A stretch of 64,000 bases of DNA from Octopus vulgaris (Eukaryota). A model generated the notes under the pieces. The model searched no databases and was not told where the DNA came from. It worked only from the letters and a program-made list of their open reading frames with translations. Where the stretch lies: positions 140,306,001-140,370,000 of the forward strand of contig OX597818.1 in NCBI GenBank assembly GCA_951406725.2, in the 5' to 3' direction. A program made the position numbers and the translations under genes. How positions within the stretch are numbered: the first letter of the stretch is position 1; each line of letters begins with the position of its first letter. Shown here piece by piece: positions 58,250 to 59,794 of this stretch.

Positions 58250-59283
58250 AATAATAATAATAATAATAATAATAATAATAATAATAATAATAATAATAAT
58301 AATAATAATAATAATAATAATAATAATGATGATGATGATGATGATTTTGATGATGATGATGATGATGATGTTGTTGATGAAAATTGGTAAATGAGTAACA
58401 AATCTTAAATCAAACGAGCAAATAAAGAAACAAAATGCATCCAGTTAGTGTTCTAGAATACACACAAACAGACGACAAAAAGATCATCAACAATTTTCAG
58501 AACTTTGTACTTGAATATTTCTCGTTTGCTTCGTATATAATCTAAGATTATCCCTTTTCTTATTTTATAACGAGTAGATTGTTAGCCTAAAGGTTGTATT
58601 GAATTAGACGAGAATTATATGGAAAAGAAAATGAAAACTCAGTAAATATAATGTATTAGAAATGGTGTTTACATTATTACACATCTCCAGAAATATATAA
58701 GGAAGAGAGCAGGTGATGGAGGAGGAGGAGATTCAAACAACACCGGCCTCAAAGAAAAATTATATGAAAATATAAAGCAAAGAAAGTTTGGCAAAGATGC
58801 TAAGTTTCATATTCCATTACTATTTTGGAAAATTTAATATGGAGCAGCAACATGAATACACACATATGCATACACATATGCATGTGTATATGTATGTTAG
58901 TATATGTGTGTATATATAAGTATATGTATATATATATATATGTGTGTGTGTGCGTGTATATATATATATATATATATATATATGTATACACACACATATA
59001 TATACCACGGGCATATGATGTAGTGGTTAAGAGCGCGGGCTACTAACCCCAAGACACCGAGTTCAATTCCAAGCAGTGACCTAAATAATAACAATAATTG
59101 AAATAATAATAATAATAATAATAATAATAATATCAATAGTAATAATAATAATAATAATAATAATGATAATAATAATAATAATAATAATAATAATAATGAT
59201 AATAATAATAATAATAATAATAATAATAATAATAATAATAATAATAATAATAATAATAATAATAATAATAATAATAATAATAA

Positions 59284-59520
59284 TATGTCTTAACTGGTAC
59301 ATCACATGTATTGAGAAGAGCATTGTCGATGTGAGAATTGTTGCTGCTCATGTATTTTAATTAAAAAAAAAAAATGAACGAACTATTGAGTTTGGTGTAA
59401 TGGCCTACCAATGTATACTATGAGTTTCTTTGCCCTAGGAGTCGGGAAGACACTCGGCAAGAAATGGAAGCAAATTTGAAAGAAGAAAAAAAAAAAAAAA
59501 TAATGATAATAATAATAATA
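59284..59520 (+). mobile_element. 5'-truncated R4/Dong-like LINE 3' end inserted in (TAA)n
   Basis: VLTGTSHVLRRALSM* is the typical Dong/R4 ORF terminus, followed by a 3'UTR, an A-run and (TAA)n. Confidence 0.75.
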
Positions 59521-59573
59521 ACAACGTCGAAAAATACATTAGGAATAAGAACACAGGTTCGAAATTTCCCCAA

Positions 59574-59619
59574 GACACCTGAAGAAGGCTGGAGGGTATA
59601 TCAGCCGAAACGTTGTGTT
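59574..59619 (+). ncRNA. Minimal type I hammerhead ribozyme motif
   Basis: GACAC-CTGAAGA-A-GGCTG(GAGGGTATAT)CAGCC-GAAA-C-GTT-GTGTT: 5-bp stem I, 5-6-bp stem II, palindromic ACGT stem III, GUU triplet ending at 59614. Confidence 0.75.
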
Positions 59620-59794
59620 AACAACAAAGAAGATGGGGACAAATATCCGTCGATATGTAAATAGTGTAAATAAAGCACATAATTCCTCATCTCTTAAATA
59701 TAGAACTCAGGGTGTGTGCTTGTGTGTGTGTGTGTGTGTGTGTAGAGAGAGAGAGAGAGAGAGAGAGAGAGAGAGAGAGAGAGAGAGAGAGAGA

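Follow-up and report, generated by a model that had tools for sequence, protein, structure and literature searches.

A 64,000-nt stretch of the Octopus vulgaris genome (hereafter the window) contains, on one strand, a tRNA-like head with the two boxes of a Pol III promoter, an (AAT)n tract and a body with a minimal hammerhead ribozyme (HHR), which raises the question of whether these pieces form a single mobile element and, if so, what kind of element it is and how it has spread. A preliminary description of the window had proposed a tRNA-headed SINE fused to the end of a Penelope-like element (PLE), interrupted by a Dong fragment and mobilised by a Penelope-like reverse transcriptase (RT). 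We addressed this question across the genome, i.e., 2.8 Gb in approx. 30 large contigs.

Layout of the unit

Among loci selected by the head, the body was found downstream on the same strand in 26 of 29 other loci, and among loci selected by the body, the head lay upstream in 22 of 29 (median gap of 53 nt). The head and body form one element, and this part of the earlier proposal holds. The piece that separates them in the window encodes the 15 terminal codons of a LINE ORF; at 29 other loci, it was followed by AAT in every case, while head and body were absent from 27. It is an independent LINE 3' end (59286-59482) that was later inserted into the AAT tract, as an interrupting fragment had been expected to be; its label Dong/R4, assigned from motifs, is presumptive. 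Recent activity of Dong-R4 is noted in the available text of an O. vulgaris annotation (PMC13282606). The AAT linker of this PLE family has received no fewer than three different LINE 3' ends (loci with LINE ends in the linker: L004, L005, L015, L020, L028, L058, L072, L144, L281 and L287), and the presence of several distinct ends marks the linker as a recurrent insertion target. The window also contains at least eight copies of a short repeat family (including 58020-58248, 62340-62500, 19694-19923, 29094-29806 and 47448-47676), which often end in AAT tracts.

In the window copy (Table 1), the leader letters are the same as those that precede the head in ORF-linked copies and as those at the centre of the palindromic junction described below. 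The whole body including the tail spans 59523-59708; the start codon site (59545-59547) is mutated and the frame is broken after 59661. For arms that lack the tail, the short 3' end maps near 59673. The window copy is flanked by microsatellites, and no target duplication was seen around it. Directly downstream (59797-60020) lies a further tRNA-like head, joined to another body, with one weak second copy at 34120-34192.

Table 1. Features of the interrupted short copy, in window coordinates
Feature	Position	Strand	Remark
Leader remnant	59005..59008	+	4 terminal nt of the PLE 3' UTR, or centre of a lost inverted arm
tRNA-like head, 74 nt; start of terminal repeat (pLTR), likely Pol III promoter	59009..59082	+	follows the PLE ORF end in 26/27 loci
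A box	59016-59026	+	within head
B box	59061-59070	+	within head
(AAT)n linker, expanded in the window copy	59084..59285	+	head-body gap elsewhere: median from 48 arms
Secondary LINE insertion, foreign to the element	59286..59500	+	final codons, 3' UTR and A run of an AAT-targeting LINE
Remaining AAT/AAC linker	59501..59522	+	
Body: pLTR and first PLE ORF codons	59523..59673	+	
Minimal type I HHR, palindromic helix III, extra A after A9	59574..59619	+	motif, fold
HHR stem I	59574-59578/59615-59619	+	
HHR core	59579-59585	+	then one extra A
HHR stem II	59587-59592/59601-59606	+	
HHR GAAA	59607-59610	+	
HHR palindrome	59609-59614	+	predicted cut after 59614
Tail, approx. 34 nt	59674..59708	+	on one arm only of each pair; runs into the ORF in partial tandems

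The Pol III-type head of the preliminary description was recovered with both of its boxes, which are intact in the family and in the window copy both show transition changes as compared to the commonest letters. With ARAGORN at its default threshold and Rfam at its E-value setting, no tRNA was found in the window, in 60 loci or in 12 loci. At a relaxed ARAGORN threshold, a tRNA fold was found in 12 of 111 head copies as compared to none of 555 shuffles. When compared to 20 tRNA genes of the O. vulgaris genome (representing 7 isotypes only), three of four head copies scored best against tRNA-Arg(TCT), with scores of 56-63 (shuffles: mean approx. 26, maximum 40).

The minimal hammerhead with a palindromic stem III was also present as a motif. 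Its predicted fold, with stems I and II, is no better than that of many shuffles (z -1.27), and Rfam reported no hammerhead in the window or in 12 loci. On the other side, the genome has 2,155 exact matches to the 35-nt core as compared to 0 for a reversed control, and its columns keep the commonest letter in 78-98% of 242 arms, the free N7 position excepted. The weight of the hammerhead call therefore lies in this family-wide conservation, which had been anticipated, and not in the folding score. Cervera and de la Pena (PMC4209133, as far as available) name an unpaired extra base, as seen after A9, among the typical features of the minimal hammerheads of PLEs.

The autonomous partner

The partner ORF was first met between the arms of L284/L285. 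A search with its 3' end yielded 27 further loci after removal of the query itself and two duplicates with 99% identity. In 26 of these, the ORF end and a UTR of approx. 30 nt were followed by the head, and at the one remaining locus linker and body stood in its place; three of the 26 may be segmental duplicates. Near-identical copies of one insertion, seen in L282, L283 and L285 (G000:C1, 7.9-9.1 Mb) and in L313, L318 and L324 (C17), suggest segmental duplications or assembly duplicates. Among 30 loci chosen by the N-terminal part of the RT, four (L327, L337, L344 and L354) were partial tandems in which body or tail runs into the ORF, the body encoding the first approx. 54 ORF codons. One of these, L354, is a whole unit of approx. 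2.8 kb, with its start 2 nt upstream of the head, and it was the only full-length copy seen with the head at its 5' end. These loci show that the full element consists of head, AAT tract, body (with the ORF start, the HHR and the tail), an ORF of approx. 830 codons, a 3' UTR of approx. 30 nt, and head, AAT tract and body once more.

The unit in the window is thus the terminal repeat of a Poseidon-type PLE and not an independent SINE chimera. The proposed fusion of a SINE with a PLE end gives way to the own terminal repeat of an autonomous PLE; mobilisation by a Penelope-like RT, on the other hand, agrees with our data, as the same unit flanks a Poseidon-type RT/GIY-YIG ORF. That the body is the start of this ORF is indicated by a frame that, in 37 of 89 full arms, stays open from the ATG to the end of the tail, and by a match to the N terminus of an 847-aa relative (P0003; 19 of 43 residues identical, E 3e-5). 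Compared with PLE pLTRs, as the preliminary description had envisaged, the body therefore proved to be pLTR and 5' end of the PLE ORF at once. Subfamily variants of the body, which occur in short as well as ORF-linked arms, are of the kind expected under coding constraint: D/E, a silent Ser change, and 9-nt repeats that keep the frame.

A 569-aa frame at L332 matched Pfam RVT_1 with an E-value of 2.7e-6, slightly short of the curated cut-off, and DKG, GSPLS and CSCG..YKGET motifs aligned with those of full-length relatives; a match to GIY-YIG was found in the relative P0069, and no Pfam match to it in L332 itself. As in endonuclease-bearing (EN+) PLEs, a single ORF with a PLE-type RT followed by a GIY-YIG endonuclease was found together with pLTRs from partial tandems and, as judged by motif and predicted fold, a hammerhead in the pLTR. 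As in the Penelope/Poseidon clade, the endonuclease is C-terminal and no Zn finger lies in the RT-EN linker (in alignment A1 this linker has no Cys motif; the Neptune-type ORF L183 has one). In an RT tree without named Poseidon or Penelope references, the ORF grouped with P0001 and P0166 (100/100), while local Neptune- and Hydra-type ORFs sat on very long branches. These two clade labels were assigned from motifs and are presumptive. Relatives of the partner ORF showed 40-68% identity, the nearest named ones being barnacle proteins (cluster of P0006); no solved structure matching the ORF was found.

No intact ORF was found, the 569-aa frame being the longest among the top 150 matches, and arms diverged from the commonest letter by 4-6% (selected arms) or 6.5% (10 random arms); the family is in a decayed state. 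Its divergence is close to the value which the available text on O. vulgaris gives for an 18-million-year SINE/LINE burst (PMC13282606). The body was found in sequencing runs labelled as four organisms, with no RNA run among those listed, and three runs cover the ORF in 30 of 30 bins.

An RT remnant, which had been placed at 62550-62800 as a PLE trace near the unit, is real (62524-62787, minus strand) but Neptune-type; it matches a Neptune-type ORF (68% over 47 aa), shows no similarity to the true partner and belongs to another family. It is an older relative of a young Neptune-type PLE family (L181-L190), whose ORFs are C/T-rich and which has open frames of 1,050-1,200 codons. The Neptune-type family (no body match in 50 loci) and a young Hydra-type family with a 727-aa frame (no body match in 30 loci) were both rejected as partners. 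The very young Hydra-type family (L201-L245; copies 98-100% identical, possibly still active) has a long 3' UTR, a minimal HHR, two 3' ends approx. 70 nt apart and head-to-head pairs, and its ends lie in TA repeats. Elsewhere (L091:2100-4600; G000:C1, 20.00 Mb), tandem units of approx. 359 bp, each with a canonical type I hammerhead, form an array in which five units of one strand face two of the opposite strand, and represent a family that resembles non-LTR retrozymes, with an inversion of the PLE type. Another short hammerhead repeat, with a perfect head-to-head palindrome and TA-repeat flanks, was seen at L145:9680-10000, L198 and L156.

Short copies and their proposed origin

Nine insertions in sixty random 10-kb stretches correspond to approx. 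42,000 per genome (95% range 19,000-80,000). In a set chosen by the HHR only (50 loci, all on contig C1), short copies outnumbered ORF-linked copies approx. 10:1 (4 of 47 ORF-linked), and head-to-head pairs were present at 23 of 47 loci. Among 66 pair rows from 63 loci, the tail of approx. 34 nt was on exactly one arm in 60 and on both arms in none; four had no tail on either arm and two were unanchored. Direct repeats of at least 10 nt, mostly 12-13 nt with one mismatch allowed, flanked 49 of 60 pairs (shuffled mean 2.1), and since this target duplication encloses the whole pair, each pair represents one insertion event. An inverted 5' copy and a 30-40 bp tail at one end, both found here, are described as PLE hallmarks in the part of the review available (PMC8557442), and some inverted pairs bear the ORF (e.g. 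L284/L285, L332, L349). The same anatomy of pair and tail was found in an unrelated young PLE family of this genome. The perfect junction, in which one head start faces another across 2 nt, was found at 364 sites. Among the 50 listed, 28 have AC or GT at the centre and a further 20 have AT, which CpG decay would produce from either. Where the orientation of the centre was scored against the tail arm, it pointed one way in 4 cases and the other way in 6, so that a fixed dimer copied whole was rejected.

The 5' ends of the arms cluster at the head. Of 41 head matches in the HHR-chosen loci, 25 begin at the first 5 nt of the head without ORF sequence, 11 begin further inside it and 5 extend into the ORF; 25 of 30 arms that reach the first head bases thus stop there, which points to Pol III starts. 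In independent sequencing runs, loose ends accumulate at head +1 and at both 3' ends, and summed contig depth, a rough measure, drops approx. tenfold or more between the pLTR and the 3' end of the ORF, and once more toward its 5' part. The two arms of a pair match at subfamily sites more often than expected (49 of 57 as compared to 30.2, and 47 of 62 as compared to 32) and do not agree at CpG sites; agreement at subfamily sites indicates a common source of both arms and fits one template or two equally well, as it does snap-back of a single cDNA and the joining of two. Median divergence was 4.4% for short and 5.3% for ORF-linked arms.

The window thus holds a short pLTR copy of a Poseidon-type PLE with a tRNA-like head, and we regard it as probable that such short copies derive from head-started Pol III transcripts copied by the RT/endonuclease of the element. 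Pol III would start at approx. -2 to +1 of the head and read through the T4-free unit, without a terminator, into the flank, yielding an RNA that would contain the binding and start sites of the RT. The enzyme would then nick both DNA strands and begin cDNA at two internal sites 30-40 nt apart, and the two cDNAs would be joined at their far ends, aided by the short palindrome around the head start. Two internal RT starts and extension of both nicked strands would yield fixed 3' ends with one tailed and one tail-less arm, and joining at a small palindrome would explain why the junction centre points either way; the palindrome could bias junctions to the head start even for longer cDNAs. An anole Poseidon element, according to the available text, makes its tail in vitro from two internal RT starts, has both strands cut and extended, and uses mainly uncleaved RNA as a substrate (PMC11167929). 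In the octopus, too, the template would have to be uncleaved, because a cut after 59614 would part the head from the RT start sites; the hammerhead is therefore likely to be slow as a monomer and would act, if at all, on tandem RNA.

An alternative which we consider unlikely is that the head is a passive tRNA or SINE relic in the UTR of an ordinary Pol II PLE, in which case short copies would be 5'-truncated and a hairpin would stop the RT or guide the joining. The variants and age common to short and ORF-linked arms would fit this alternative, as would the palindromic junction, in which 30 of the 89 arms that retain the head start intact are located, and the LINE-like internal promoter described for Drosophila Penelope in the available source (PMC2377424). 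However, 53 of the 89 arms start at the head start without a palindromic junction (37 of them with no more than 2 leader letters), the hairpin is weak (-7.3 kcal/mol, z -1.45), and the family has retained intact A and B boxes with no T4 common to copies of the unit.

Far less probable is an independent Pol III SINE with a PLE end and master copies of its own, reliant on self-cleavage and on the PLE at 62.5 kb. Short copies are approx. ten times as numerous as ORF-linked ones, some of them may have been secondary masters, and one head position differs in frequency between short and ORF-linked arms (p=0.004, with the short set partly picked by likeness to the window copy); however, the head is already within the autonomous element, no variant of the body was found to mark a short-only lineage, the 62.5-kb remnant is Neptune-type with no body in the loci of its family, and cleavage would strip the head from the template. 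We give almost no credence to a head-to-head unit that is a fold-back DNA element copied whole, or to chance nesting in AAT tracts: pairs do resemble long inverted repeats with a target duplication, and AAT tracts do draw insertions, but the arms are truncated independently, with junction centres of both orientations, and approx. 10 body arms per 600 kb of random sequence are too few for an adjacency at 26 of 29 loci. Both are refuted by ORF-linked copies, i.e., by a unit that flanks an RT ORF.

The whole autonomous element (2.8 kb with an ORF of approx. 830 codons) may also have been transcribed by Pol III from the head of the upstream pLTR, a tentative extension that we hold to be possible though rather doubtful. 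A scan of 68 segments from 60 loci showed no TTTT site common to more than three of 31-52 copies in the 2.3-kb ORF (coverage fell to 5 at the ORF 5' end), which is suggestive only; copies bear 0.46 private TTTT runs per kb. Related ORFs (75 of 80 loci, five near-duplicates or short matches being excluded) served for comparison: 35 of similar T content have 3.06 TTTT per kb, and one of 42 long relatives has none at all. The density was 7.8 per kb in the local Hydra-type and 4.5 per kb in the local Neptune-type ORFs. The chance of zero TTTT was estimated at 0.0008 to 0.017, for a depletion that represents one evolutionary sample. The start of L354 at -2 of the head is a further point in favour. 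Against this reading, GGGG is likewise absent from the ORF; a conditional TTT-to-TTTT test gave P=0.05 only, and in single decayed frames TTTT was not depleted as compared to synonymous shuffles (3 versus 3.1; 1 versus 2.8). Moreover, as Pol III RNA is uncapped, another way of translation would be needed. If this reading were true, a protein-coding retrotransposon would use a Pol III promoter, with the downstream pLTR making its own SINE from the same promoter, contrary to the general assumption that an autonomous retrotransposon depends on Pol II.

In two RNA runs from 2026 (X23 and X24, mapped on L313:1700-2400), the family accounted for 11,461 out of 12.9 million raw records in one and 8,820 out of 12.0 million in the other (0.07-0.09% of those read), on both strands about equally, with some reads joining opposite strands. 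These fragmented data showed no sharp read ends at the head or the cut site and do not bear on the polymerase or on cleavage. Differences of the A>G and T>C type were somewhat commoner in the RNA runs, as were C>T and G>A, in a comparison without matched DNA, and we make no claim of editing. Inverted pairs within transcripts could form dsRNA, of which they represent a large possible source.

According to the usual picture, SINEs are distinct parasites which take no more than the tail from a LINE. The approx. 40,000 SINE-like copies described here correspond to part of the sequence of their own autonomous element; this suggests how a retrotransposon, after the capture of a tRNA promoter, might come to spawn its own SINE. 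Repeat annotation would class such copies as unclassified SINEs. The short pairs, with their fixed tail asymmetry, palindromic junction and clean duplications, also represent a large natural data set on the formation of PLE inverted repeats.

Comparison with known systems

The octopus family is thus a real and abundant PLE of the Poseidon type whose terminal repeat starts with a tRNA-like head and which is accompanied by numerous SINE-like copies of the pLTR alone; our literature search, outside of which lay most subscription papers, Repbase and Dfam, found no description of a PLE with a tRNA head in the pLTR or of this octopus family, which may have a Repbase or Dfam name. As far as the available descriptions go (PMC11167929; PMC8557442), the element resembles PAc of Anolis carolinensis and Penelope of D. 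virilis in its single ORF with RT and C-terminal GIY-YIG, its partial-tandem pLTRs, an ORF start that overlaps the HHR (the anole ORF begins inside the hammerhead; PMC11167929), a 30-40 bp tail at one end and an inverted 5' copy. Unlike these, the octopus pLTR opens with a 74-nt tRNA-like head with A and B boxes, and pLTR-only copies dominate. In 75 related metagenome loci, no credible combination of A and B boxes was found in the sequence downstream of the ORF match, of which up to 900 nt were scanned (4 loose matches, none tRNA-like).

Pol III promoters derived from small RNAs also lie inside the terminal repeats of TRIMp3 retrotransposons (Cassandra, Helenus, Ajax), which, in the available text (PMC10886601), are non-autonomous LTR elements, their author holding that autonomous partners must use Pol II; the octopus head sits in the repeat of a coding element, and neither two LTRs with PBS and PPT nor a 4-5 bp TSD was found, the family having 12-13-nt repeats and a PLE partner. 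Non-autonomous hammerhead repeats derived from pLTRs are already known (bioRxiv 10.64898/2026.07.22.740005; PMC7229834), and the octopus short copies share with non-LTR retrozymes and other non-autonomous PLE derivatives, including MRC1, the non-coding HHR unit from pLTRs (bioRxiv 10.64898/2026.07.22.740005; PMC8557442). Non-LTR retrozymes are defined, however, by head-to-tail tandems, and a Pol III head is absent from their description as available (bioRxiv 10.64898/2026.07.22.740005); octopus copies are solo or head to head, and direct body repeats are rare (e.g. L256, L278).

The Schistosoma repeats Sm-alpha and Sj-alpha are likewise described, in the texts available, as tRNA-related, with a type I HHR and tens of thousands of copies, and as short repeats apparently transcribed by Pol III (PMC6765202, PMC2770079). 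By these descriptions, however, they are SINE-like repeats in tandem, from which a canonical HHR releases monomers, whereas the octopus family has a minimal HHR and dispersed inverted pairs; the same descriptions give no autonomous partner with the same head, while the octopus head belongs to an autonomous element. The octopus family may thus be a model for Sm-alpha. With SINE2 elements, finally, the short copies share a tRNA-derived head with A and B boxes, a length of approx. 300 bp, a high copy number, a target duplication and a 3' part in common with the mobilising element. SINEs are treated as non-coding with a borrowed tail in the available source (PMC5786205). Unlike SINE2, the octopus copies have no LINE tail or poly(A), their fixed 3' ends probably come from internal RT starts, and insertions are often inverted pairs; nor is the head independent of an autonomous partner with only a 3' tail shared, as the entire sequence, head included, lies within the autonomous element.
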